Assembly: GCA_046583315.1 (NCBI GenBank)
Contig: JAYGCN010000343.1
Location: 26,285-90,284 of the forward strand
Length of the DNA: 64,000 bases
Source: Candidatus Hydrogenedentota bacterium
GTDB lineage: Bacteria > Hydrogenedentota > Hydrogenedentia > Hydrogenedentales > GCA-2746185
Direction: 5' to 3'
A model generated the notes under the pieces. The model searched no databases. It worked only from the letters and a program-made list of their open reading frames with translations, and was not told the origin of the DNA. Positions 5,436-64,000 of this stretch are shown here, one piece after another (position 1 is the first letter of the stretch; each line of letters opens with the position of its first letter). A program made the position numbers and the translations under genes.

Positions 5436-5514
5436 TTGGAGACTATCCCATGTAGAATAACACGATACCGCATCTCATGTAACCACAGAACAACTTCAAT
5501 AAAGGTTTCACTCA

Positions 5515-7851
5515 ATGCGCTTGACCACTCTTCTGATGTTGTTCCTCGTCGCTCTTGATGCCGACGCACAGAAAATTGACCTGAGCAACGCGAGCATTGT
5601 AGTCCGCCCAGGAGATTTGCCGCTGGCAGAACAAGCAGCCGGCGTTGTGTTGCAAGAAGAGATCGAAAAACGAAGCGGGATTCGCCTACCTATTTCCGGG
5701 AGTTGGCCTGACCAGGGATCGGGTATCGCAATCTCCTCCACCGAAAACGTCCCAGCCTGGAACAAAGAACTTCCCGCATTCACTGAACGAAATGCCGAGG
5801 GCTATCGTCTTTATGCGGATGCAGACGACAACATCTGGATACTCGGTGCCGATGCGCGCGGCACGTTGTATGGAGTCGGTGATTTGTTACGGAATCTGGA
5901 GTGGGGGAAAGGCGTCGTTTCGTTATCAGCCCCCATCGACCGCCACACAGCCCCGGCCTACCCGATTCGAGGCCACCAGCTCGGATTTCGCCATCGTGCC
6001 AATTCCTGGGATGCCTGGACACCCGAACAGTTCGACCAATACATGCGCGAGCTCGCATTTTTTGGTGTCAACAGCATCGAGAACATTCCCTTCGAGGATG
6101 AGCGGGAAGGCCCGCTGATGAAGGTGACACGCCGTGAGATGAATCAAAAATTGAGCGAAATCTGCGCACGTTACGGCATGGATTATTGGGTGTGGACACC
6201 CGCGGACTACGACCTCACCGATACGGATGCGCGCGCCGCGGCACTCGACAAACATGAACAACTCTACCAGGATTGCGAAGAATTGACCGGCGTATTTTTT
6301 CCGGGCGGCGATCCTGGTCACAACCCACCGGAGCTCGTGCTCCCCTTTCTGGAGGACATCTCAAAACGACTGAGTCAGTATCACCCGGATGCACGGGTGT
6401 GGTTGTCCCTTCAATGGTTCAACAAGAAGCAAATTGCCTACATCTACGATTTTCTCGAAACGGAATCGCCGGACTGGCTCGGCGGACTCGTTGCCGGGCC
6501 ATCGTCTCCCCGGATTCCAGAGACACGTCGACGCCTTCCCGCAAAGTACAAATATCGCCTCTATCCCGACATCACGCACAACAAGATCTGCCAATATCCC
6601 GTGCCATGGTGGGACCAGGCCTATGCATTGACGCTCGGTCGCGAAGCCATCAATCCGCGTCCGGCACAATACACCCAAATCCACAATTGGTTCGCCCCGC
6701 ACAGCGACGGATTCATTTCCTATTCAGACGGCGTACACGACGACGTGAACAAATCCATCTGGAGCGCGCTCGGCTGGGATCCTTCACGGAAACCACGCGA
6801 GACACTCGTAGAATATTGTCGAGTCTTTTTCGGCCCCGACGTTGCAGAAGCGGCCGCGGACGGAATACTGGCCCTGGAAAACAATTGGCGCGGCTCATTG
6901 ATCGATAACGGTGCCGTCGAGAGTACGCTCCTGCTCTGGCAGAAGCTCGAAGAGGCTCATCCCGAGCTCGACGACAACTGGCGCTGGCAAATGAATCAGG
7001 TGCGCGCGGTTTTCGATGCCTATTTGCGCCACCGACTCATTCATGAAACACGCCTGGAACAAGAAGTGAACGCCATCCTCCGTCGAACTGAGCTGTTCGG
7101 ATCTCAGGCATCCATGCAGGCGGCTCTGGATAAGCTGAACGAAGTCAAAACGCAGCCAGAGAGCGTCGACCTGCGAGACCGCATCTTCGAACTCTGCGAG
7201 AAACTGTTTCAATCGATTCAACTACAGACGAGCGTGCCGAAATATCAGGCGAGCGGTGCCGAGCGTGGGGCATTCCTCGATTTCGTTGATTATCCGATGA
7301 ACAACCGCTGGTGGCTCGAAGATCAATTCGCAAAAATCGCCGAGATGAATACAGAGGCCGAGAAAAATGCACGATTGTTGGTCATCGCCAACTGGGAAAA
7401 CCCTGGACTTGGCAGTTACTACGACGACATCGGAAACACTGCAAAATCGAATCACGTATGGCACAGCGACGTCGTCGTGACACAGCCGGGTGAAGAAGTA
7501 AATCCGGAGCCGACGCTGTGGTGGTGGGACAACGGCATGAGCCGCGAACGTTTGAGTTTTCAATCCAGCATGGGCTGGCCCAAAGCGGTGGTCTACGAAG
7601 GCCTCGACACCAACGCAAACTACATCATACGTACGACCGGTTACGGCCAAGCCCTATTGAAAATGGATGGCCAGCCGGCATCACCCTCGATCAACGGAAC
7701 GGGTATCGGCGAATTCAAAGACTTCCCCGTTCCCACGGAGCTGATTCAGGATCGCGAACTCATTATCACCTGGGATCGCCCCACCAACGAAGGGCACCTA
7801 AACTGGCGGCAGCACTCGCGCGTTTCGGAGATCTGGCTATTGAAGCACTAG
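5515..7851 (+). CDS. Large secreted protein, putative glycoside hydrolase (GH20/GH67-type N-terminal domain)
   Basis: Signal peptide; EGYRL...ILGADARGTLYGV...P.YPIRG pattern of GH20b/GH67N domains followed by a probable barrel domain. Confidence 0.6.
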   Translation: MRLTTLLMLFLVALDADAQKIDLSNASIVVRPGDLPLAEQAAGVVLQEEIEKRSGIRLPISGSWPDQGSGIAISSTENVPAWNKELPAFTERNAEGYRLYADADDNIWILGADARGTLYGVGDLLRNLEWGKGVVSLSAPIDRHTAPAYPIRGHQLGFRHRANSWDAWTPEQFDQYMRELAFFGVNSIENIPFEDEREGPLMKVTRREMNQKLSEICARYGMDYWVWTPADYDLTDTDARAAALDKHEQLYQDCEELTGVFFPGGDPGHNPPELVLPFLEDISKRLSQYHPDARVWLSLQWFNKKQIAYIYDFLETESPDWLGGLVAGPSSPRIPETRRRLPAKYKYRLYPDITHNKICQYPVPWWDQAYALTLGREAINPRPAQYTQIHNWFAPHSDGFISYSDGVHDDVNKSIWSALGWDPSRKPRETLVEYCRVFFGPDVAEAAADGILALENNWRGSLIDNGAVESTLLLWQKLEEAHPELDDNWRWQMNQVRAVFDAYLRHRLIHETRLEQEVNAILRRTELFGSQASMQAALDKLNEVKTQPESVDLRDRIFELCEKLFQSIQLQTSVPKYQASGAERGAFLDFVDYPMNNRWWLEDQFAKIAEMNTEAEKNARLLVIANWENPGLGSYYDDIGNTAKSNHVWHSDVVVTQPGEEVNPEPTLWWWDNGMSRERLSFQSSMGWPKAVVYEGLDTNANYIIRTTGYGQALLKMDGQPASPSINGTGIGEFKDFPVPTELIQDRELIITWDRPTNEGHLNWRQHSRVSEIWLLKH

Positions 7852-47382: not shown

Positions 47383-48288
47383 ATGAAACTATCGAAAATC
47401 ATTACCGGACTCAGCCTTGGCCTTTTCGCCATCACGGCAAACGCTCAACCCAAAGTCGAACCCGCACATTTTCATCACGTGCACCTCAACGTCACCAACC
47501 CGGCAAACACACTGAAATTCTATACCAAGAATCTCGGCGCCGTAGAGGTCAATTATCGCGGAAAATCCAAAGCCCTCTTCTCCGAAAGCTCCTTTTTCCT
47601 GCTCAATAAAGTCGATAAAGCCCCCGAATGGCGTCCTCACACCGCGTTGTCCCATATCGGCTGGTCCACCACCGACGGCCCCGCTACATTCGAATGGCTC
47701 ACGAAACAAAATGTCAAATGGGAGACTGAAATCGCCAGCCTCGGCGCGAATCAGGGCATGTATTTTTACGGCCCCGATAAAGAACTCGTCGAAGTCTGGA
47801 CAGGCAGCCGTAACCACCGCTTCGAACACCTCCACTTCTGGGCCACCGACGCCGAAGTAACCGGAGCCTGGTTCAACGATCACCTAGGCGTACCCGGACG
47901 CGTTGGTCCCAAACCCACGCTCAAAGACTACGACAACATCGCCGCCCTGCGCATGGGATTTCTGCAATGCGGTAACGTCAACCTCATCATCTTCGAGCGC
48001 CCTGATTTCGATAGCCGTTGGTTTCCCGGCGGTAGCTACAAAAAAGAAGAAGGCCCCGGCGAAGAGTTTGCCCCCACCAAAGACACCGCCATCGACCACC
48101 TCGCCTTTTCCTATCGCGAGATCAAACCCGTCTACGATCGCATGAAAGCCGCCGGAGTGGAAATCGTGGAGGACATCAAAGTCAGTGAGCAATATGGGCA
48201 TACCAGCTTTTTCGTGATGGCGCCCGACAACTTGCTCGTCGAAGTCGTGCAAGAAAAACCCATACCCGAAGGCATCTGGGAAGATTAA
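47383..48288 (+). CDS. Secreted two-domain VOC (glyoxalase/extradiol dioxygenase) family protein
   Basis: Signal peptide; FHHVHLN, LSHIGW, GPDKELVEV, FEHLHF, IDHLAF, APDNLLVEV. Confidence 0.8.
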   Translation: MKLSKIITGLSLGLFAITANAQPKVEPAHFHHVHLNVTNPANTLKFYTKNLGAVEVNYRGKSKALFSESSFFLLNKVDKAPEWRPHTALSHIGWSTTDGPATFEWLTKQNVKWETEIASLGANQGMYFYGPDKELVEVWTGSRNHRFEHLHFWATDAEVTGAWFNDHLGVPGRVGPKPTLKDYDNIAALRMGFLQCGNVNLIIFERPDFDSRWFPGGSYKKEEGPGEEFAPTKDTAIDHLAFSYREIKPVYDRMKAAGVEIVEDIKVSEQYGHTSFFVMAPDNLLVEVVQEKPIPEGIWED

Positions 48289-53115: not shown

Positions 53116-54132
53116 TTAGATACTTACCAGCGGCTTGGGTTCCGCCTCAACCATTTCCAGCCACGAGAATTTGTAGTCCGCTTCCTGGATGCGGTTGCCG
53201 AAACGCTCGGCCACCTTGCGATAGCGATCGGGTAGCGAGCAAAGATACTGCTGGGCCGCTTCGGCTTTATCACCCAGACCCGTCAGGTTTGCAATATCCC
53301 ATGTCTTGAGTAGGTGATCCATAATATCTGTGTAATCCGCGGGTGTATAGACACCATTTTTCTCGGCGACCTGCGCAAACTTCTCAAAGGTCTCGCCAAT
53401 CTTCACGCCTTGTTCGCGCATGTACATCGCCGGCATGGTAATCTGGCGACGCATCATGTCGTAGAACGCAAGTATCGCTTCATCGGGATCCACATCCAGT
53501 ACTTTTTGGAAGAAGCCTTTGTAGGCACCCGCATGGCGATTTTCATCGACGGCGATCACGCCGCATATTTTTGCCAACACACGATCACCAACACGATGCG
53601 CATGCCTTGCGACGTTCTTGTGGGAGATACGTGTGGCGATTTCCTGAAAGCTGGTGTATACGAAAGTTTTGTATGCGTCCGTCCCCACGCCGATGTCCGC
53701 GCCGTCCGCGAGCAGGTTGTGAATCGTTACTTCTACCGCTCGCATGTTTACACGACCGGTAAGATAGAGATACTTGTTCAGGATATCGCCATGGCGATTT
53801 TCCTCGGCAGTCCACTTGCGCAACCATTCGCCCCAACCATTCTTGGGCTCACCACTGCGGTCCATACCGTCAATCTCTTGAATCCACATGCAATACGAGG
53901 GCAGCGCTTCTTCGGTGATCATGTCTCCGATGAGGCAGACCATCACATCATCGCTAAGGCCGGACGCGCGCTGTTGCAGGTCACTGATTTGCTCGAGGGC
54001 GTCGGGCTGACTCATCTCGGGAAGCATATCGGCCGGTTGCCAATAATTTTCCGCTTCCGTCGTCAGGGTCGAGACGGTCTCTGCGGCAAAATTTTCGAGG
54101 TGTTTCATGACTTCAAGACGTGAACCGTTCAC
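53116..54132 (-). CDS. Soluble acyl-ACP desaturase (di-iron, plant stearoyl-ACP/DesA type)
   Basis: WQP.D.LP, GDMITEEALP.Y, WTAEENRHG, YTSFQE.AT.ISH, DENRH, I.MPA; GTG start after GGAG (alt. TTG 54147). Confidence 0.92.
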   Translation of the reverse strand: MNGSRLEVMKHLENFAAETVSTLTTEAENYWQPADMLPEMSQPDALEQISDLQQRASGLSDDVMVCLIGDMITEEALPSYCMWIQEIDGMDRSGEPKNGWGEWLRKWTAEENRHGDILNKYLYLTGRVNMRAVEVTIHNLLADGADIGVGTDAYKTFVYTSFQEIATRISHKNVARHAHRVGDRVLAKICGVIAVDENRHAGAYKGFFQKVLDVDPDEAILAFYDMMRRQITMPAMYMREQGVKIGETFEKFAQVAEKNGVYTPADYTDIMDHLLKTWDIANLTGLGDKAEAAQQYLCSLPDRYRKVAERFGNRIQEADYKFSWLEMVEAEPKPLVSI

Positions 54133-54319
54133 AAGCAAGTTCTCCAATAGTCGGTGGTGGTATTGTAGCAGTCATTGTACGGTCGTGCAGGACAGACGTA
54201 TGCATTCGTAACTGCTAGAAATTATACAGTAAGACTACTGCATATCCAGTGGCAGTTCAAATTTTTTCTTTGTAAAAGAGCGAATTATCGAGTCAATTAT
54301 ACAATCAAACAGGAATATG

Positions 54320-54408: not shown

Positions 54409-55056
54409 ATGGAAGACCACGACATTCTAACCATCGAAGAAATCGCACAATACCTACGGGTCTCGGAACGTACCGTCTATGATTGGGCGAATAAAGGAAG
54501 CATCCCTTGCGGTAAGTTGGGGACCACCTGGCGCTTCAAACGCTCGGAAGTCGAAAAGTGGATCGACGAAAAGCTTTCCGGCAACGTCAAAAGTAATTCC
54601 TCCGAAGACTTGTCGATAGCGGAAGTGCTCACTCCCGAACGAATCGTGCTGCTCGACACCACCTCAAAAGAAGACGCGTTGAACGCGCTCATCGAACGAC
54701 TCGGTGAGGCAGACGAAATTCAGGATTGCAATGCGCTCGCCAAAGAAATTTTCATCCGCGAGGAACTCATGAGCACGGGTATCGGTTTTAATGTCGCCGT
54801 ACCACATGTGCGACTCGACTCAGTGAAGAATCTTGTGATGGCGGTCGGAATCAGCAAAGAACCTCTGAGCGACTACGCGTCGCTGGACGAGCAACCCGTC
54901 CGCATTGTGTGCATGGTCGCCGCACGTAGCGATCAGCACGCACAATATCTCCGAACGCTAGCCTTGGTTAGTTCGGTACTGAAAGATCTCGATGTACGCC
55001 AGGCTTTGCAGAACGCCGGTGACGAAAAGTCAGCCTATCTCATTTTGACTCAATAG
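54409..55056 (+). CDS. Excisionase-type HTH fused to PTS EIIA (PtsN/fructose-type) domain
   Basis: LTIEEIAQYLRVSERTVY.W...G.IP..K.G..WRF; RE..MSTGIG..VAVPH (phospho-His). Confidence 0.9.
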   Translation: MEDHDILTIEEIAQYLRVSERTVYDWANKGSIPCGKLGTTWRFKRSEVEKWIDEKLSGNVKSNSSEDLSIAEVLTPERIVLLDTTSKEDALNALIERLGEADEIQDCNALAKEIFIREELMSTGIGFNVAVPHVRLDSVKNLVMAVGISKEPLSDYASLDEQPVRIVCMVAARSDQHAQYLRTLALVSSVLKDLDVRQALQNAGDEKSAYLILTQ

Positions 55057-55080
55057 CACCTAATCTGGACACCCTTCGAC

Positions 55081-56754
55081 ATGGACGTACTCAACAGCGG
55101 AATACTTGCCATCCTCGGTATTGGTGTGTTCGGCGGCATCGTCGGAGCGTATCTTTTCCAGCGACTCCATGTTCCGCAGGTGGTTGGTTATATTATGATG
55201 GGGCTGTTGATTGGTGATGTCGGCTTTGGTCTTGTCGACGCGAAAGCCATTGAGGGTCTCGAATCACTCAACCTGTTTGCGCTCGGAATCATTGGGTTCC
55301 TCGTCGGTGGCGAATTACACATCGACATCTTTCGTAAACAAGGCAAGCAGCTGTTTGCAATCTTGCTATTTGAAGGCGTAGGCGCTTTTTTGCTCGTGGG
55401 AATTCCTGTTACCGGAGTTCTTTTCTGGTTGACCGACAATTTCTCCGTGTCACTCGCTGCGGGTGTCGTATTTGGTGCTATCGCATCCGCCACCGATCCC
55501 GCTTCCACACTTAATGTGCTGTGGGAATACCGTTCGCGCGGGGTGCTGACCACCACACTGGTCGCCATTGTAGCGTTGGATGACGCGCTGGCCATGACGC
55601 TCTACGGCATAGGTACCACCGCCGCACAGATCCTGACCGGTTCCTCCGCTTCGTTCAGCGAAGAGCTTCTCCGCACTGGCATGGAGCTAGGTGGCGCCAT
55701 CTTGATGGGACTGATCGCCGGTTTCGTGCTGCGTTCCATGATGCGCTGGATAACCTCTCCCGAAAAATTGTTTACCGGTGCTATCGGTCTGATTCTACTT
55801 ATCATCGGAATTGCAGCGTCGCTCAATATGGATGTCATCCTCGCGGCCATGACCATGGGTGTCACGCTCGTCAACATTTCCACCAAACGCAGTCTGAAAA
55901 TTTTCAGCACGGTCCGCTCATTTGCGGACCCCATCTACGTGATCTTCTTTGTTTTGGTCGGTGCGCGACTTAATCTCTCCGCGATGCCCGGCTGGTTGTG
56001 GGGCGTTGTTGCAATCTACGTCGCTGGCCGTAGTGTCGGGAAAATCGCCGGGGCTTATGCCGGAGGCCGACTAACCGGGGCCGATCCCGTTGTTTACAAA
56101 TATGCCGGCATGGGGCTCTTTGCGCAAGGCGGCATCGCGGTCGGTCTATCAATCATGGCCGCGCATCATCTTGGCGATGTACAAGTGAACGAAACGCTTT
56201 CGCTGGGCGACATGATTATTTTCTCCGTCACCGCCTCAACCTTCGTGCTACAACTGACCGGACCGCCTCTCATCAAGTTGGCGAGTAAACTCTCTGGCGA
56301 AATTGGTCGCGACGTGACCGAGGTGGACGTGATTGCAACGTGGACTGTTGAAGATGTCATGAAAACGACTGTTCCTCCGATTACTCAAGGCACGCCACTC
56401 ACCCATATCTTCCAGATTTTCTCGGTACACGACTACGTCATGTACCCGGTGGTCGGCGATGACAATGAACTCAAGGGTGTGCTCTCGCTAGACGGACTGA
56501 AAGGCATCGTGGTGAGTCCGGAGACCTGGGATTGGGTACTCGCGGCCGATGTGATGACTCACACGGAGCACACCGTAGGCAAAGACATGCCGTTGCAAGA
56601 GGCGCTGGACTTCATGCGGGACCGAAATTTCGAAGAAGTCCCGGTCGTGGATCAAGACAATCGCATTCTCGGCATGCTGGATGAGCGAGCCGTGCGTATC
56701 CGGGTCAATGAAGAGGTTATCCGTCGTCGTGAGACCGTCATCGTGACATCGTAG
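55081..56754 (+). CDS. Cation:proton antiporter (CPA) with C-terminal CBS pair
   Basis: P.VVGYI..G, ATDPA, IVALDD, FFVLVGA.L, R..GK..G; C-term V.DVM...YPVV...L.G.L...A.DVM...VPVVD. Confidence 0.88.
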   Translation: MDVLNSGILAILGIGVFGGIVGAYLFQRLHVPQVVGYIMMGLLIGDVGFGLVDAKAIEGLESLNLFALGIIGFLVGGELHIDIFRKQGKQLFAILLFEGVGAFLLVGIPVTGVLFWLTDNFSVSLAAGVVFGAIASATDPASTLNVLWEYRSRGVLTTTLVAIVALDDALAMTLYGIGTTAAQILTGSSASFSEELLRTGMELGGAILMGLIAGFVLRSMMRWITSPEKLFTGAIGLILLIIGIAASLNMDVILAAMTMGVTLVNISTKRSLKIFSTVRSFADPIYVIFFVLVGARLNLSAMPGWLWGVVAIYVAGRSVGKIAGAYAGGRLTGADPVVYKYAGMGLFAQGGIAVGLSIMAAHHLGDVQVNETLSLGDMIIFSVTASTFVLQLTGPPLIKLASKLSGEIGRDVTEVDVIATWTVEDVMKTTVPPITQGTPLTHIFQIFSVHDYVMYPVVGDDNELKGVLSLDGLKGIVVSPETWDWVLAADVMTHTEHTVGKDMPLQEALDFMRDRNFEEVPVVDQDNRILGMLDERAVRIRVNEEVIRRRETVIVTS

Positions 56755-56812
56755 CACCCTTGTTTTGAATACACCTGGTGATGAGCATTCGGATGAGCAG
56801 GAGAGAATCGAT

Positions 56813-57385
56813 ATGAAGGAACAGCTTCGCCGCGCACTTCCTTATATCGGAATAATCACCTTCGCATCGCTCTTTGCCATCGTACCCGCGCTCAACCGCA
56901 CCAAAATTGAAGGGGATCACCTCACCTTTCGTCTACCTAATCTGGATGGCATCGAAATGGCGCAGGATGATCCGGAATTTTCGGACACAGTCCTTTTGGT
57001 CAACATCTGGGGAACCTGGTGTCCGCCGTGTCGCGTGGAAATACCTTATCTATCGGCACTGAAAGAAAAATATGGTGATCGCGGATTCGAGATCATCGGC
57101 ATCGAATACCCGGCCTATTCATGGAACTCCGAGAAAGAACGCCGACAGCTGCTCCAGGGATTTTCCGACGAGGTCGGAATCAATTATAGGATTCTGTTGG
57201 GCACGCACCCCGAGTCTGTCATGGACGATCTGCCGAACCTGAGAAACTTCAAAGGTTTTCCTACCAGCATCTTCGTTGATCGGAACGGCAAGGTCGTGCA
57301 CACGCAACAAGGATTTTACGAAGGAGATATTCCGCGGTATGAAGCGCTGATCGAATCGTTACTCGAAGAGGCACCAACCAATTAA
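56813..57385 (+). CDS. TlpA/ResA family thiol-disulfide oxidoreductase
   Basis: N-terminal TM; VNIWGTWCPPCRVEIP, FPTSIFVDRNG; AGGAG RBS. Confidence 0.9.
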   Translation: MKEQLRRALPYIGIITFASLFAIVPALNRTKIEGDHLTFRLPNLDGIEMAQDDPEFSDTVLLVNIWGTWCPPCRVEIPYLSALKEKYGDRGFEIIGIEYPAYSWNSEKERRQLLQGFSDEVGINYRILLGTHPESVMDDLPNLRNFKGFPTSIFVDRNGKVVHTQQGFYEGDIPRYEALIESLLEEAPTN

Positions 57386-57965: not shown

Positions 57966-58457
57966 CTACAGACCGTCGGGATCCAGATTGAAGGTCTCTA
58001 CAAGGTAGTCGTAATTGCGCCCGCCCATCAGGAAGTCCATGTAAATTTCGTGGACCAGATGCACAAGCTTACGCGTACCGTAGTCGAAATCTCCGTCCAG
58101 TACCGTGGCTGTGAGTGAAACATTTCCTGCTCGGTTAAACACCTTGATGCCCACTTTTGTTTCATCTATTTTTCGATGATCGGGCAAGTCCTGATTTTTG
58201 CGGCGTTTCACATATTCTTTGAACGCGGCATACATTTCTGAATCGGCTGGTACGTTTGGAAGCACCACTGGAATGCGCAGCGTGTTCTTTGCGGTATCGA
58301 CGATAAACTCGAATCCCTGATCGCGGTGCCACACCATGCGGTATGTGGTCTGGTGATTCTTTTCGCGGACGGGACTGAAGCCGCGGAAGATGCCGCGCGT
58401 AGCGTAATGCTCAAGCACGGCGGTTACCACTTCGACGGATCGTTCGGATGAACTCAT
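57966..58457 (-). CDS. Hypothetical protein (163 aa)
   Basis: Protein-like ORF filling the gap; no motif recognised. Confidence 0.65.
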   Translation of the reverse strand: MSSSERSVEVVTAVLEHYATRGIFRGFSPVREKNHQTTYRMVWHRDQGFEFIVDTAKNTLRIPVVLPNVPADSEMYAAFKEYVKRRKNQDLPDHRKIDETKVGIKVFNRAGNVSLTATVLDGDFDYGTRKLVHLVHEIYMDFLMGGRNYDYLVETFNLDPDGL

Positions 58458-58482: not shown

Positions 58483-58519
58483 AAAAGAGTCCGCCCCCGA
58501 TTCGTTCAGGAGCGGACTC
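58483..58519 (-). terminator. Putative intrinsic terminator after the ThDP enzyme gene
   Basis: Minus strand GAGTCCGCTCCTGA-ACGAA-TCGGGGGCGGACTC-TTTT. Confidence 0.65.
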
Positions 58520-58538: not shown

Positions 58539-60542
58539 TTAGTGAGCGACGGCGCCGATGCCGGGCTCGGGGTTCATGGATACGCCGGGCGGATAATCCC
58601 GTGCCGAGGTGAACTCTTTGATGGCCTGACAGTTGATCACCGTCGAAACGTTCTCATTCGCGGCGAGTTTGTAACTCGTGGCCAGTGCCGTCTTGAATTG
58701 TTCGGGTGTCGTCACATATTCACCATTGACGCCCAGACCTTCGGCGATTTTATCGTAGCGCAGATTTTCCTGGAAGATGTACATGTGCATGGAGCGCGGT
58801 GAACGCGCGGCTGCTGGCCACATACCCCAGGCATCGTTGTTGTAGATGATACAAATGATCGGGATTCCGTATTTATTCGCGGTATCCAGCTCGAACATAC
58901 TGTAAGCTGCACCCGCGTCACTGGTGATGCACAAAGCAGGCGCGCCTTTGTACGGAGCCTGGGGGCCGACCCCTTCTTTGACCGCCGCACTCGCACCGAT
59001 CATCATCGCAAGGTCAGGTCCGATAGCGGCATATTGGTAAGCAGGGACAATCGTCTGCGCAGGACGATTCGCGCGCAACCAGCGTCCGCCATAGAGGCCA
59101 GCCGTCCAACCGCCAGCACCGGACACCGTCTGCTTGGGGTCAATGTCACCGTGGTAGAAAAAGTCGTACGTGAGTTTACCCATAACCGCCGGGTGAATCG
59201 CACCGGAGTCTTTGGAGTACTTGACGCCGAGCGTGTATTGTTCATTGATTTCATCTTCGTAGGATTTACGGCCTGCGGTGATTTCTGCCACCCAGGAATC
59301 GCGTTTCTTTTTCGGGATGCCATCTGCCAGCATTTCCATGAAGACTTTCTCGTCGCTGACGATACCGAGGTCGATCGGCCAGTTTCGACCCATGTCTTCT
59401 TGTACGGGATGGATGCGAATGGTTTTGACGTCAGGATTGAATCGATACTCGCCTGGACTTGGCATGCAGTATTGGCCAACAAATACGACCAGATCCGCAC
59501 TCATCAGCGTGTCAGGTGCCAAGGTCGCAGAAAGACGATGGTCATCCGGGAAACAACCCCGTGTTGGACCCGAACCCACGACACAGATGTCGTTCTTCTC
59601 TGCGGCGACCAAGAGCTCATTCCAAGCCTTGCGTTGGAAGATACCCTGACCCGCCACAATTACCGGGCGCTCAGCTTTGTTGATCATGGTGATGGTCTGT
59701 TCCACTTCCTTCGGAGAAGGGAACGCCCGCGACTCGGTGCGATACTGTTCTTTGCCATAGTAATCGACCAGTTCGGAGGAGTCTGTAAACTGTGCGCGAG
59801 CGACTTCAGCGGGGAAATCGAGATGAACCGGACCCGGAATGCCGGATTTCAGATGACGAAAAGCGTAGGCACCATATTCGTGTACACGACTCGGGTCGAT
59901 GAGGCGTTTACCGTATTTCTTCATACCCGTCGTCGTGGGTTGCTGATAGCCGGTCTGGATGAACTGTTCGCGGTCATCGCCGGCGATGCGCATGTTGCTC
60001 GCCAAAACCAGAAGTGGCGTGCGCGCCGCGTTGGCAGCCGCAATATTCATGATCATGTTGGTGAATCCGGGGCCTTCCGTACCGGAGGTCGCGGTCACTT
60101 CACCAGTAGCGCGGGAAAATCCGTCTGCTGCGGCGCACATGGAGCCTTCACAACGTCCGCCGTATGCCGGGATGCCGACCGCTGCGAGCGCATTGATGAC
60201 CGTGTAATTACCGGGGCAGCAGAACATGGCTGCGAGGTTCTCATTCTTACACACCTGAGCGAAAACTTCTGCGCCGCTCATGCCGTTGCCGTCAAACGTG
60301 GAAACTTTCGGGTCTTCCGCAAGCGTGGTCAGCAGGTCATCGGGAATTCTGATGGATGGGATATCGGCTTCGGAAATGGTGGATGCCAACGTTTCCTTTG
60401 CCATGCCCGCGGTCGCTGCAGCAGCACCGGCACCTACGGCCGACGTTCGCAGAAAATCGCGACGGGAGAATCCATTGGTTTCTGGCGTTTCTTTGCTAGG
60501 CGCTTCGGTGGGTGCATCAGTCGTTTCGGTTTCTTCACTCAT
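58539..60542 (-). CDS. Thiamine-diphosphate-dependent enzyme (ALS/oxalyl-CoA decarboxylase/HACL superfamily) with Tat signal
   Basis: SRRDFLR+hydrophobic h-region; RCE...AADGFSRATG (catalytic Glu), GPGFTN, PGPVHLDFP, AERPVIVAG.G, SDAGAAY..FELDT..KY.IPI..IIYNN ThDP/Mg motif; AAGGGG RBS. Confidence 0.88.
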   Translation of the reverse strand: MSEETETTDAPTEAPSKETPETNGFSRRDFLRTSAVGAGAAAATAGMAKETLASTISEADIPSIRIPDDLLTTLAEDPKVSTFDGNGMSGAEVFAQVCKNENLAAMFCCPGNYTVINALAAVGIPAYGGRCEGSMCAAADGFSRATGEVTATSGTEGPGFTNMIMNIAAANAARTPLLVLASNMRIAGDDREQFIQTGYQQPTTTGMKKYGKRLIDPSRVHEYGAYAFRHLKSGIPGPVHLDFPAEVARAQFTDSSELVDYYGKEQYRTESRAFPSPKEVEQTITMINKAERPVIVAGQGIFQRKAWNELLVAAEKNDICVVGSGPTRGCFPDDHRLSATLAPDTLMSADLVVFVGQYCMPSPGEYRFNPDVKTIRIHPVQEDMGRNWPIDLGIVSDEKVFMEMLADGIPKKKRDSWVAEITAGRKSYEDEINEQYTLGVKYSKDSGAIHPAVMGKLTYDFFYHGDIDPKQTVSGAGGWTAGLYGGRWLRANRPAQTIVPAYQYAAIGPDLAMMIGASAAVKEGVGPQAPYKGAPALCITSDAGAAYSMFELDTANKYGIPIICIIYNNDAWGMWPAAARSPRSMHMYIFQENLRYDKIAEGLGVNGEYVTTPEQFKTALATSYKLAANENVSTVINCQAIKEFTSARDYPPGVSMNPEPGIGAVAH

Positions 60543-61033
60543 TGCTGTCCCCTTCTGCCGTGGAGCCTGCTCCATCAGCGTCCGTTTCTTTGGGATTTTC
60601 TTCGACCAACTCCGGGCGTTGATCTTTCGGCCACAAGCTGCGTATAAAATTCACAAGATGCCACAGGTCGTCATCTTTTTTTATCTTCGCTTTGTAGGGA
60701 GGCATCGCGATTCCGGCACCATCACGAATACTCCGGTAAATCTCACCCTCGGTCGAACCGCTGTACCAACGTTTCGTGTTCGTCAGGTCCGTCGCGTCGG
60801 CGATGATGTCAATTTGGGCCTTGCCAGCCGGGCCATGGCATGCGGCACACTCGCGCACGAACCAGAGCCGACCGCGCTTGATGGATTCTTTGGTGTAGGG
60901 CATAGGACTCTTCAGCGTCTTGAAGTCTAGCGCTTTGGCGTCTTCCCCTGCTGGTGCCTTTTCGTCCGCATTAGATAACGCAGCTTGTTAAAACGAGGAC
61001 GAGTATCAGCCCTTTTTCAATACTCAGATACAT
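60535..61033 (-). CDS. Monoheme c-type cytochrome; signal peptide interrupted by a 1-nt frameshift (~60985) as sequenced
   Basis: CAACHG heme motif, distal AMP; ORF 60535..60903 extends open to 60987 without a start; GAGGT RBS + ATG 61033 give MYLSIEKGLILVLVLT in an adjacent frame. Confidence 0.8.
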
Positions 61034-61281: not shown

Positions 61282-63570
61282 ATGGCAACCAGCGGCGTAT
61301 GGAAACAAACGGCCTGCATACTGTGCGGTCAGAACTGCGGACTCGAAGTGCTCGTAGAAGGCAGGGAAATCAAGAAGGTCAAGGGCGATAAGTCGCATCC
61401 TATCTCACAAGGCTATGCCTGCCAAAAAGCTCAGCAGATTAACTACTACCAAAATGACAAACACCGTCTGAATTCCCCGCTGCGCAAAAAGGAGGACGGT
61501 ACCTTTGAGGAGATCTCATGGGACACGGCCATTCAAGAGATTGCAGATAAATTCGTCGGGATACGCGACGAACATAACGGCACGTCGATAGCGTACTTCG
61601 GTGGCGGTGGACAGGGCAATCACTTAAACGGCGCCTACAGTGGATCGTTTCGTGCCGCGCTCGGCACTCCCTATCTCTATACCTCCCTCGCGCAGGAAAA
61701 GACCGGCGGGTTCTGGGTGGACGGCAAAATGTTTGGTAGGCAGAATGTGCATCCGGTAGAAGACACCCATAAAGCGGACTTCCTGTTGCTCATTGGTACC
61801 AACCCCTGGCAATCGCATGGCATTCAACAGGCGCGCACGTTACTCCAGGCCTTCGCCAAAGATCCTGATCGCACGCTCGTGGTCGTTGATCCCGTTCGCA
61901 CCGAGAGCGCCGACCGTGCCGATGTTCATTTACAAGTCAAACCCGGCGGCGATGCGCACATGATGCTCGCAATGCTCGGCACGATAGTTCAAGAAGGGTT
62001 GCAAAATCAGAAATTCATCGACGAATACACAACCGATTTTGACAAGATTGAGAAGCTCGCGCGCAATATCGATGTCGATGCGTATTGCACCGAAGCCGGA
62101 CTCGATCCCGAGACGGTAAAACAGGTTGCGCGACAGTATGCGACAACCAAGAAGGCGTGTATGCGTACGGACCTCGGACTCGAACATTCACTGCACAGCA
62201 CGTTGAACAATTATCTGGTGCGTCTCCTCTATATCGTAACTGGCCACTTGGGTGTGGAAGGCGGACAAGTTTTCCATACTTCACTGTTACCGCTTATCGG
62301 CCACTCGAAAGATCCGGAAGACGGCGGCATGACCACCAAAGTCACAGGCGTACGCGAAATCGGTAAGTTGTATCCACCAAACGCTTTACCATTGGAGATC
62401 GACAACGACCATCCCGATCGAATCCGGGCCGTATTTGTGGACAGCGGCAATCCCGTGTTGACCGGTGCGGACTCGCGCGCGTATTACGCGGCCTTTAAGA
62501 AATTGGAGTTGCTCGTCGTCGTGGACGTTGCCATGACCGAGACGGCGCGCCTCGCCGACTACGTGCTGCCGGCAAGTTCACAATACGAGAAGGCCGAGGC
62601 GACCTTCTTCAATTTCGAGTTCCCGGAAAACTTTTTCCATTTACGCAAGCCGCTCTTCGAGCCGCTTGAAGGCACCTTAGCCGAAGCGGAAATCTACCGA
62701 CGTCTGGTTACCGCGATGACCGATTTGCCCGACGACGTGGAAGACCTTGAAACGGCCGCCAAGGAAGACCGTGCTAATCCCGGCAGCTATACCTTTGCAA
62801 CGGCGTTGCAGAAAGCGAGCCAAGATAATCCCGAGCTGCAAGCCTATGCGCCGCTTGTGTTGTTGAACTCCATGGGCAAGGCCTTACCCAAAGGCATGGA
62901 GCCTGCCGCAATACTCTGGTATTCAACTCAGATGTCTGCTGTGAAGTACGCGACGGAACTGGCAAGCGCGGGCATCGAAGACGAGGGCGCCGGGGTGGCC
63001 GATGCATTATTTAATCGAATCTTGGATACGGATACCGCGGTCATCGTGAGCAAAGGTAAATACGAAGATCTGATGACCAACCTGAAGCACAAGGATGGAA
63101 AGATTCACCTGCATATTCAGGAAATGTTCGATGAGATAGAGGCGTTGGATGACGTGCCGGACGATGCTGAATTTCCATTTGTGTTGCAGGCCGGCGAACG
63201 ACGCTCGTACAACGCGAATCAGATTATCCGGAGCGGTGATTGGCGCAAAAAAGATCCTGACGGCTCGCTGCGCATGAATCCGCTTGATGCAAAATCCCTC
63301 GGCGTAGAAACCGGCGATGAGGTTGAAGTGGAATCGGCTCGCGCGAAAATCTCGGTCGTCGTCGAAGTATCGGACATGTATCGACCCGGGTTCGTTTCGC
63401 TTCCTCATGGCTATGGCATGCTCGAGAAGCAGGGCGATTCCTGGGACGACGTGCAACAGATGGGACCGAGCATCAATGAGCTTTCCGAAGCCGACCACTG
63501 TGACGACATCGCCAGAACGCCATTTCATAAATTCATTCCCGTTCGCGTTAATGCGTTGGTAAAGGCATAG
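61282..63570 (+). CDS. Molybdopterin (bis-MGD) oxidoreductase, cytoplasmic, N-terminal 4Fe-4S
   Basis: CILCGQNCG...GYAC.K, RL.SPL, ISWD.A, IGTNPW.SHG, VVVDP.RTE, TARLADYVLP, C-terminal MNP.DA..LG...GD.V...G.V.LPHGYG; GGAG RBS. Confidence 0.92.
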   Translation: MATSGVWKQTACILCGQNCGLEVLVEGREIKKVKGDKSHPISQGYACQKAQQINYYQNDKHRLNSPLRKKEDGTFEEISWDTAIQEIADKFVGIRDEHNGTSIAYFGGGGQGNHLNGAYSGSFRAALGTPYLYTSLAQEKTGGFWVDGKMFGRQNVHPVEDTHKADFLLLIGTNPWQSHGIQQARTLLQAFAKDPDRTLVVVDPVRTESADRADVHLQVKPGGDAHMMLAMLGTIVQEGLQNQKFIDEYTTDFDKIEKLARNIDVDAYCTEAGLDPETVKQVARQYATTKKACMRTDLGLEHSLHSTLNNYLVRLLYIVTGHLGVEGGQVFHTSLLPLIGHSKDPEDGGMTTKVTGVREIGKLYPPNALPLEIDNDHPDRIRAVFVDSGNPVLTGADSRAYYAAFKKLELLVVVDVAMTETARLADYVLPASSQYEKAEATFFNFEFPENFFHLRKPLFEPLEGTLAEAEIYRRLVTAMTDLPDDVEDLETAAKEDRANPGSYTFATALQKASQDNPELQAYAPLVLLNSMGKALPKGMEPAAILWYSTQMSAVKYATELASAGIEDEGAGVADALFNRILDTDTAVIVSKGKYEDLMTNLKHKDGKIHLHIQEMFDEIEALDDVPDDAEFPFVLQAGERRSYNANQIIRSGDWRKKDPDGSLRMNPLDAKSLGVETGDEVEVESARAKISVVVEVSDMYRPGFVSLPHGYGMLEKQGDSWDDVQQMGPSINELSEADHCDDIARTPFHKFIPVRVNALVKA

Positions 63571-63573
63571 ATT

Positions 63574-64000
63574 ATGGCCCGATATAAACCTGGTACGAAG
63601 GAAGAGACACACAAACGGATCGTGGATGAGGCGTCCCGGCAGTTTCGTGCGAAAGGCATCGAGGCGACCAGTATTGCCGATGTCATGGGTGCGCTGGATT
63701 TGACGGTCGGTGGTTTTTATAAACATTTTTCCTCCAAGGCGGCGTTGCTGAATGAAGCCATGGGCGGTGCGTTGGCCCAGTCGGCGCGACGGTTGAGTCG
63801 CGCGACACCTGCGGAAGGTGAAACAGACCGGCGGGCTGCATTGGCGCGCATGTACCTCACCCAAGAACACCGCATGAATATTGCATCGGGCTGTCCCATT
63901 GCGGCCTTGGGCAATGATATCTCTCGTGCCGATGACGCGACACGGAAGGGGTTTGAAGAGCAATTGCTGGCCTACATGGATACGGTGGCAGACGGTGATT
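63574..64000 (+). CDS. TetR/AcrR family transcriptional regulator (3'-truncated by window edge)
   Basis: MARYKPGTKEETHKRIVDEASRQFRAKGIEATSIADVMGALDLTVGGFYKHFSSK... then GCPIAAL; open to window end. Confidence 0.9.
   Translation, partial: MARYKPGTKEETHKRIVDEASRQFRAKGIEATSIADVMGALDLTVGGFYKHFSSKAALLNEAMGGALAQSARRLSRATPAEGETDRRAALARMYLTQEHRMNIASGCPIAALGNDISRADDATRKGFEEQLLAYMDTVADGD

Follow-up and report, generated by a model that had tools for sequence, protein, structure and literature searches.

The window, a 64,000-nucleotide stretch of a Candidatus Hydrogenedentota genome, carries on its minus strand what, judged by comparison with related loci, is a conserved three-gene module: a thiamine diphosphate (ThDP)-dependent enzyme, a c-type cytochrome and a small third protein. 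The enzyme is predicted to be exported folded by way of twin-arginine translocation (Tat), and the system is real, widespread and uncharacterised, its novelty lying in the compartment and in the likely electron acceptor. To our knowledge, ThDP enzymes are considered to work in the cytoplasm or in organelles, and the oxidative ones depend on flavin adenine dinucleotide (FAD), lipoamide or Fe-S clusters; no description of an exported ThDP enzyme was found in a literature search that covered mainly open-access journals. The features of the locus are given below, where residue counts, as in the rest of the text, refer to 88 aligned close members of the enzyme family and to 70 distant ones.

58539..60542 (-): ThDP-dependent enzyme precursor of 667 amino acids (aa), decarboxylase/pyruvate oxidase (POX)-fold superfamily, assigned from Pfam, NCBIfam and PDB-sequence matches and from trees
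60384..60467 (-): core of the predicted Tat signal, with SRRDFLR (aa 26-32), Ala/Gly h-region, c-region Lys and predicted T-x-A cleavage after Ala53
60204..60224 (-): FCCPGNY (aa 107-113), an active-site loop peculiar to the family that replaces the GxPG loop
60147..60149 (-): catalytic Glu132 (ThDP activation), 87/88 and 70/70 distant, aligned with the catalytic Glu of HACL/S (2-hydroxyacyl-CoA lyase/synthase)
58836..58919 (-): ThDP/Mg motif Asp542...Asn568-Asn569 (D542 88/88, N568 86/88, N569 87/88)
60971..61033 (-): 5' piece of the cytochrome gene, with ATG, 20-codon hydrophobic Sec-type signal peptide and premature TAA (from translation; hydropathy 3.1)
60535..60987 (-): class I monohaem cytochrome c domain (PF13442, E 3e-10; PF00034), out of frame with the signal peptide
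58487..58519 (-): 14-bp hairpin with a U-run, between the enzyme gene and the third gene (z = -4.1)
57966..58457 (-): third gene, after the hairpin, 163 aa, no signal and no Pfam match

Export signal and linkage of the three genes

The PYR, central and PP domains (PF02776, PF00205 and PF02775) all exceed their cut-offs in the 667-aa open reading frame (ORF; 60542-58539). The NCBIfam cut-offs are all missed widely, both for the POX, acetolactate synthase (ALS) and Gcl families (TIGR00118, the best, 153 bits versus 538 needed; NF006377, 106 versus 742) and for the equivalogs of HACL and oxalyl-CoA decarboxylase (OXC) (NF006721, 123 versus 557; NF058623, 106 versus 600). The top PDB sequence matches are HACL/S and OXC, with E values of 8e-36 and below. 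Where the preliminary description of this locus had named OXC, HACL, POX, ALS and benzaldehyde lyase (BAL) side by side as points of reference, our trees (FastTree and a smaller IQ-TREE) place the family as a fully supported clade within the OXC/HACL-like radiation, apart from PoxB, Gcl and ALS, on a long stem that leaves the exact sister group unsure. A separate acetolactate synthase-like gene of the same genome groups with IlvB/IlvI. Databases name the family proteins 'thiamine pyrophosphate-binding' or 'acetolactate synthase-like'.

In the N-terminus of the enzyme, an acidic leader precedes SRRDFLR (aa 26-32), after which come an Ala/Gly stretch free of charges and ETLA/S (aa 50-54), and every element of the textbook twin-arginine leader described earlier is present. 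The available text of PMC7317946 gives the Tat consensus as S-R-R-x-F-L-K, followed by an h-region of low hydrophobicity and a basic Sec-avoidance residue. Scored as a rule, the leader shows S/T-R-R-x-F-L, an h-region of at least 12 uncharged residues and an AxA-type site, and the genome encodes TatC as well as cytochrome c assembly proteins. Among the best 120 relatives (68-84% identity), 113 carry the motif by the strict form of the rule and 117 by a relaxed one, with two of the three misses being N-truncated. The strict rule finds it in 81/90 ORFs from the related loci; on inspection six of the nine misses show RRxF and two come from truncated ORFs, which leaves L019 as the one true loss. 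The motif is likewise kept in 66/68 distant members, and S/T-R-R-x-F-L is the sole conserved element of the family's otherwise divergent N-terminus. When the rule was applied to 59 other ThDP proteins as a control, three were flagged, namely one frameshifted family member and two proteins with internal RR pairs; there is no true Tat signal among the 58 non-family ThDP proteins, and 0/5 E. coli enzymes were flagged. The claim of an export signal could have foundered on a lack of conservation in homologues, and it has come through this comparison.

The family occurs in Hydrogenedentota, Acidobacteriota, Planctomycetota and marine Gammaproteobacteria; Ca. Hydrogenedentota also supplies the nearest named relative of the enzyme (L001, 74%), and the sequencing runs that match it best are marine. 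None of the runs listed was an RNA data set, which has no bearing on expression. Linkage was counted only where the flanks were long enough (85 or 76 of 92 close loci and 49 of 80 distant ones), with the locus in the window excluded. A homologous cytochrome lies directly upstream of the enzyme in 82/85 loci, and a hydrophobic N-terminal stretch of Sec type is present in 76/80 cytochromes of the relatives. The family has, in other words, a dedicated and co-inherited c-type cytochrome, of which this genome's copy is frameshifted. In the distant metagenome loci, a same-strand CxxCH is found within 1.6 kb of the enzyme in 45/49 (L183, with a haem motif on the opposite strand only, is not counted), against a genome background of 51/585 genes. 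The third gene lies within 1.5 kb of the enzyme in 71/76 loci, downstream of the enzyme in 61 and upstream of the cytochrome in 10, and is present in 46/49 distant loci, which often show a third order (enzyme, helper, cytochrome). The cytochrome linkage proposed previously is therefore conserved, and it persists through three gene orders and through replacement of the cytochrome itself, which may be monohaem, dihaem or of a type that the profile misses. Of 41 related genomes, 11 contain the enzyme and the same 11 the third gene, with matching copy numbers (15 and 15). Neither partner is present in the loci of three Tat-less members that branch separately from one another, namely L019, L184 and a gene on a Rhizobium leguminosarum plasmid.

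A census of neighbours found no other cluster in at least three loci that was consistent across phyla, and hence no clue to the substrate. Among the conserved neighbours of the module there is no CoA-transferase, no transporter, receptor or thiamine gene, and no other dehydrogenase gene conserved across phyla.

A second Tat-bearing ThDP family, with NPGS/HEE motifs, has its own mono- or dihaem cytochrome c after each member (L035:3166-5416, L031:3821-5321, L024, L103-L105, L195, L196 and L198); in L031 and L035 the second-family gene directly precedes a three-gene module. Of the 18 loci surveyed, three could not be scored for Tat. A c-type cytochrome lies within 900 nt downstream in 9/9 Tat-bearing loci versus 0/6 Tat-less relatives, although the two groups each cluster on the tree and do not amount to 15 independent tests. 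A single clade for the two Tat-ThDP families is rejected (p-AU 6e-70). Given this rejection and the 9/9 versus 0/6 distribution, the predicted exported ThDP enzymes appear to have acquired a cytochrome c partner twice, which is the strongest indirect argument for haem in the reaction. The cultured hosts of the second family are Caballeronia zhejiangensis, Burkholderia sp. SFA1 and Novosphingobium, and the family is found on plasmids of Caballeronia, Burkholderia and Novosphingobium.

The third gene and the frameshifted cytochrome gene

The locus had been described as a two-gene unit closed by a terminator. The hairpin at 58519-58487 stands, with 0/200 shuffles folding equally well, but the two-gene unit does not, since the 163-aa third gene past the hairpin (58457-57966) belongs to it. 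The count of terminator patterns over the whole window is not above chance (6 found versus 8.3 expected). Similar hairpins precede the third gene in seven related loci of a Hydrogenedentota-like group, and in many other loci the enzyme and the third gene overlap. The hairpin probably acts inside the module as a leaky terminator and does not mark its end, and it may lower helper levels.

No RR motif was found in any of 85 third proteins, which also lack a signal. The third protein has neither a Pfam match nor a PDB sequence relative, and a search for longer or fused forms found none, which is weak evidence. Its predicted fold resembles YbjN/CesT, with TM-scores of 0.55-0.57 to Atlas models, which falls below the score that the Atlas requires to name a family. 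The likeness to YbjN/AmyR and to class I type III secretion chaperones lies in this predicted fold; unlike the latter, the third protein is tied to a Tat enzyme and not to type III secretion. According to the available text of PMC5398634, YbjN proteins work via protein contacts, without catalysis. We lean, with some reserve, towards a chaperone in preference to a co-exported subunit.

For the cytochrome, the monohaem motif described earlier is present (CAACH at 60849-60835, distal Met at 60705-60703), and its C, C, H and distal Met are invariant across 55 aligned homologues; the closest solved structures are CcoP and c552-type domains. Its stop overlaps the enzyme ATG by 8 nt (60535-60542), also as reported. 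What does not hold is that the gene is a working ORF, as it is broken by a 1-nt frameshift just past the signal peptide. The haem domain lies in a different frame from the ATG at 61033 (499 nt, 1 mod 3), and its first in-frame ATG, at 60903, comes without a signal peptide. Contigs of two runs from one study (X1 and X2) carry the same break, with the site covered without a gap, while the contig of a relative about 90% identical, in a run from another study (X5), has one base fewer at 60971. Because of these contigs, we conclude that the break is a genuine 1-nt insertion in this lineage, near 60971. A programmed frameshift was considered and rejected: the site has neither a slippery run nor cognate re-pairing, and the relative simply does without the base. 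An assembly error is unlikely since two contig sets share the break, although these share a study and one of them possibly represents the sample of origin.

The frameshift probably disables the cytochrome, and this copy of the module is therefore probably either impaired or dependent on the cytochrome of a paralogue. Elsewhere in the genome, a similar cytochrome is encoded only in a paralogous module on contig C307, where the contig end truncates it. Contigs of X2 and X4, from two studies, also show Gly508Arg (window 59021), at a ThDP-site glycine that is invariant in 88/88; this is a further hint that the module copy is decaying in the population. Of the 29 enzyme-gene differences classified, 25 are synonymous, among the matches listed (40 of 144). 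Because its cytochrome is broken, the copy in the window is a poor test object; an intact module is present in the cultured Pseudohalioglobus lutimaris HF004 (L012). Split genes, due either to decay or to assembly error, occur in other modules as well, with the cytochrome gene split across two frames in L060 (about 5450-5910) and the enzyme gene split in L045, L055, L062 and L073.

Active site, proposed reaction and competing readings

Because Glu132, Gln196 (conserved nearly without exception in the family), Asp542 and Asn568/569 are conserved, the enzyme is taken to be a ThDP catalyst. In the FCCPGNY loop, C108 is kept in 87/88, C109 in 78/88 (and in 69/70 distant members), and N112 and Y113 in 88/88. 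The family-specific conserved set comprises C98, C108, C109, N112, Y113, Y358, M360 and Y502, among which, judged from sequence, C98 and C108 or C108 and C109 may form a disulfide; further family-specific loops read GQYCMP and YQY, and a conserved C-terminal PPG...EP tail ends in a final His in 86/88 close and 48/70 distant members. Two motifs singled out earlier as variant, RCE and SDAG, carry little signal and were rejected as marks of new chemistry. The residue before the catalytic Glu varies (S 42, T 21, C 7 and M 7 of 88; HACL has Asn there), and SDAG is clade-specific, with G at that position in 69/70 distant members (GDA).

The earlier doubt about a CoA substrate is sustained in part. 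For ApbHACL/S, the available text of PMC11271303 names R156 and R276 as the ADP arginines and R260 and R400 as the acyl-CoA arginines. By alignment mapping, both ADP arginines are replaced in the family, by I/V235 and Y358 (88/88), and R260 has no counterpart; together with the lack of a conserved CoA-transferase neighbour, the loss of R260 supports the doubt, whereas R400 is kept, aligning with R487 (86/88).

The reading that we favour, by a narrow measure of confidence, is that of a periplasmic ThDP dehydrogenase working without flavin, which would oxidise a small 2-oxo acid or aldehyde with cytochrome c as the electron acceptor. This reading starts from observed features, namely the motifs and their conservation, the linkage, the joint absence of partners and signal, the convergence of two families and the absence of the flavin loop; from these we infer the export itself, the role of the helper, the transfer of electrons and the class of substrate. 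The enzyme would fold, oligomerise and take up ThDP-Mg in the cytoplasm, aided by the third protein with its chaperone-like fold, and would then be exported. The ThDP ylide would attack the substrate carbonyl, and decarboxylation or deprotonation would give the enamine. Ferricytochrome c would oxidise the enamine in two one-electron steps, a step that would be new, possibly along a path through the conserved Cys and Tyr residues (C108-C109, Y113, Y358 and Y502). Hydrolysis of the acyl-ThDP would yield the carboxylic acid, and the cytochrome would feed a terminal oxidase, with the protons released outside. For pyruvate oxidase, the available text of PMC12046553 describes two single-electron transfers from the ThDP enamine, with FAD as the acceptor. 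A bolder formulation, to which we give slightly less than even credence, is that the family may represent a new class of carbonyl:cytochrome c oxidoreductase, in which ThDP would be the sole organic cofactor and single electrons would pass via a ThDP radical directly to haem; such extracytoplasmic enzymes would have evolved at least twice, out of separate ThDP lineages, and would form a widespread and so far overlooked respiratory entry point in uncultured soil and marine bacteria, with small 2-oxo acids or aldehydes as the fuel.

Several points weigh against a flavin-free dehydrogenase coupled to haem. We know of no precedent for flavin-free transfer from ThDP to haem, and the ThDP site is buried. 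In the distant members, a nucleotide-site Asp is kept in 70/70 at position 378 and the S-G-x-x-R/K-G motif is kept as well, so that a bound nucleotide is possible. Four loci (L023, L032, L114 and L132, the last with only 1.3 kb downstream) have a Tat signal and no nearby partner; in the L023 and L032 genomes, other enzyme copies adjoin the third gene. The Tat-less member in a Rhizobium nonribosomal peptide synthetase (NRPS) cluster has no cytochrome, which suggests that the scaffold can work without one, presumably non-oxidatively. Proteins of the pyrroloquinoline quinone (PQQ) type, which could use the cytochrome, occur within 28/95 loci of at least 8 kb, and the related genomes are non-independent samples.

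Some of these points would be accommodated by a non-redox periplasmic ThDP lyase, decarboxylase or carboligase, carrying out C-C cleavage or acyloin formation as BAL, HACL or BbmA do, in which case the cytochrome would serve a different dehydrogenase of the periplasm, one supplying the substrate or consuming the product, or would set the redox state of the enzyme's cysteines. The closest solved relatives (HACL/S, OXC, BbmA and BAL/formolase) are all non-redox, the flavin loop is absent, and both the Rhizobium member and the PQQ-type proteins fit such an arrangement. On the other hand, the module comes without any conserved dehydrogenase, genomes of this kind are rich in PQQ-like genes in any case (this one has them in about 21 places), the cytochrome tracks the ThDP gene across rearrangements and is missing when the Tat signal is missing, and an unrelated ThDP family has recruited a cytochrome likewise. 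We regard this reading as unlikely, though worth keeping in view. A periplasmic ThDP/FAD flavoenzyme of the pyruvate oxidase kind, with FAD relaying enamine electrons to the cytochrome as in the flavocytochrome c design, seems to us distinctly unlikely. Flavin loading in the cytoplasm would explain the use of Tat, E. coli PoxB lacks the GxR arginine and yet binds FAD, and the available text of PMC12046553 presents FAD as a known two-to-one-electron relay in this fold. The tree position with OXC/HACL-like proteins rather than PoxB, Gcl or ALS, however, argues against a flavoenzyme, as does the ribose-binding Asp position, which varies between H, N, D and E in the main clade. So does the central-domain loop that presumably contacts the isoalloxazine ring in FAD enzymes: between H335 and D350 it has 15 residues in 88/88, as compared with 16 in Oxc and 23-24 in PoxB, Gcl, IlvB and IlvI, and is thus 8 residues shorter than in these four E. 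coli FAD enzymes.

That the system acts on thiamine or a related heterocycle, in periplasmic scavenging, oxidation or sensing, with ThDP not being the catalyst, would suit the unusual family-specific loops (FCCPGNY, GQYCMP, YQY and the C-terminal tail) and a module unaccompanied by pathway genes; the near invariance of Glu132, Gln196 and the Mg motif, and the lack of transporter, receptor or thiamine genes among the conserved neighbours, make it very improbable. Hardly credible is a non-functional RR motif on an ordinary cytoplasmic ALS/OXC-like enzyme whose linkage is merely historical. The database label 'acetolactate synthase-like' speaks for it, but S/T-R-R-x-F-L is the only conserved piece of a divergent N-terminus, the scores fall far short of all family HMM cut-offs, the genome has its separate gene of the IlvB/IlvI group, and the partners are missing where the motif is missing.

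Comparison with known systems bears on the proposed cytochrome-coupled dehydrogenase in several ways. With HACL/S and OXC (PDB 8VZA-8VZK, 6XN8, 7PT1-4, 2Q27 and 7AYG) the enzyme shares the three-domain ThDP fold, the catalytic Glu, the short flavin-free loop and one CoA arginine position (R487); unlike them, it has the Tat signal, the FCCPGNY loop and a linked cytochrome and helper, and lacks both ADP arginines, one CoA arginine and a CoA-transferase neighbour. POX and PoxB (E. coli, Lactobacillus) are cytoplasmic or at the inner face of the membrane, contain FAD and use quinone or O2 as the acceptor, whereas the enzyme described here lacks the FAD loop, is predicted to be periplasmic, would use cytochrome c as its acceptor and is distant on the tree. 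BAL/formolase and BbmA/CsmA (PDB 2AG0, 4QQ8 and 8X3X), which match the enzyme in sequence at E 5e-33 to 2e-27, are flavin-free ThDP enzymes that act on aldehydes or 2-oxo acids without CoA, but they are cytoplasmic, non-redox and without partner proteins. In genetic design, the module resembles SorAB sulfite dehydrogenase, FccAB, PchCF and methanol dehydrogenase with cytochrome cL, each of which combines an exported cofactor-loaded subunit with its own small c-type cytochrome; these systems differ in using molybdenum, FAD or PQQ, never ThDP, and their catalytic subunits are unrelated in sequence.

If a Tat-exported ThDP enzyme is indeed wired to cytochrome c, ThDP chemistry would gain a new compartment and a new electron acceptor. 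Such a result would reassign 'acetolactate synthase-like' proteins in Acidobacteriota, Planctomycetota, Hydrogenedentota and marine Gammaproteobacteria, and would provide an oxidative biocatalyst that is independent of CoA, NAD and possibly flavin and could be coupled to electrodes.

Other modules and neighbouring genes

The paralogous module of this genome (G000:C307:1-3844, L080) encodes an enzyme about 53% identical, with a Tat signal, a third gene and a cytochrome cut at the contig start; relatives in its clade have dihaem cytochromes. In six loci (L112, L113, L114, L116, L140 and L170), unrelated genes are inserted directly after the enzyme, displacing the helper and the cytochrome downstream. 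By the look of their sequences, the inserted genes resemble LLM-flavin oxidoreductase and the Fic/Doc and HigBA toxin-antitoxin systems. The Tat-less Rhizobium member (L194:9980-11821, R. leguminosarum GLR17 plasmid p3) is 54% identical and lies in a biosynthetic cluster with two reductase-ended NRPS proteins, a TauD dioxygenase, two short-chain dehydrogenases/reductases, a glycosyltransferase, a phosphopantetheinyl transferase and an extra seryl-tRNA synthetase. The cluster is possibly a pathway for a tRNA-synthetase inhibitor, and possibly a route to the intrinsic chemistry of the family.

Elsewhere in the window, a secreted glyoxalase/VOC protein of two domains is encoded at 47383-48288. 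In eight distant loci, proteins that share its HHxHxN motif are found near the module, and the module may have a link to dicarbonyl metabolism. At 61282-63570 lies a divergently transcribed gene for a molybdopterin oxidoreductase, which has an Fe4S4 domain and lacks an export signal; a TetR regulator follows (63574-64000), and this pair is not conserved beside the module in relatives. The remaining genes noted are a soluble acyl-ACP (plant-type) fatty acid desaturase at 53116-54147 (PF03405, E 1e-129) and, at 54409-57385 on the plus strand, a single run comprising an HTH-PTS IIA fusion, a cation/H+ antiporter with CBS domains and a TlpA-like thioredoxin.

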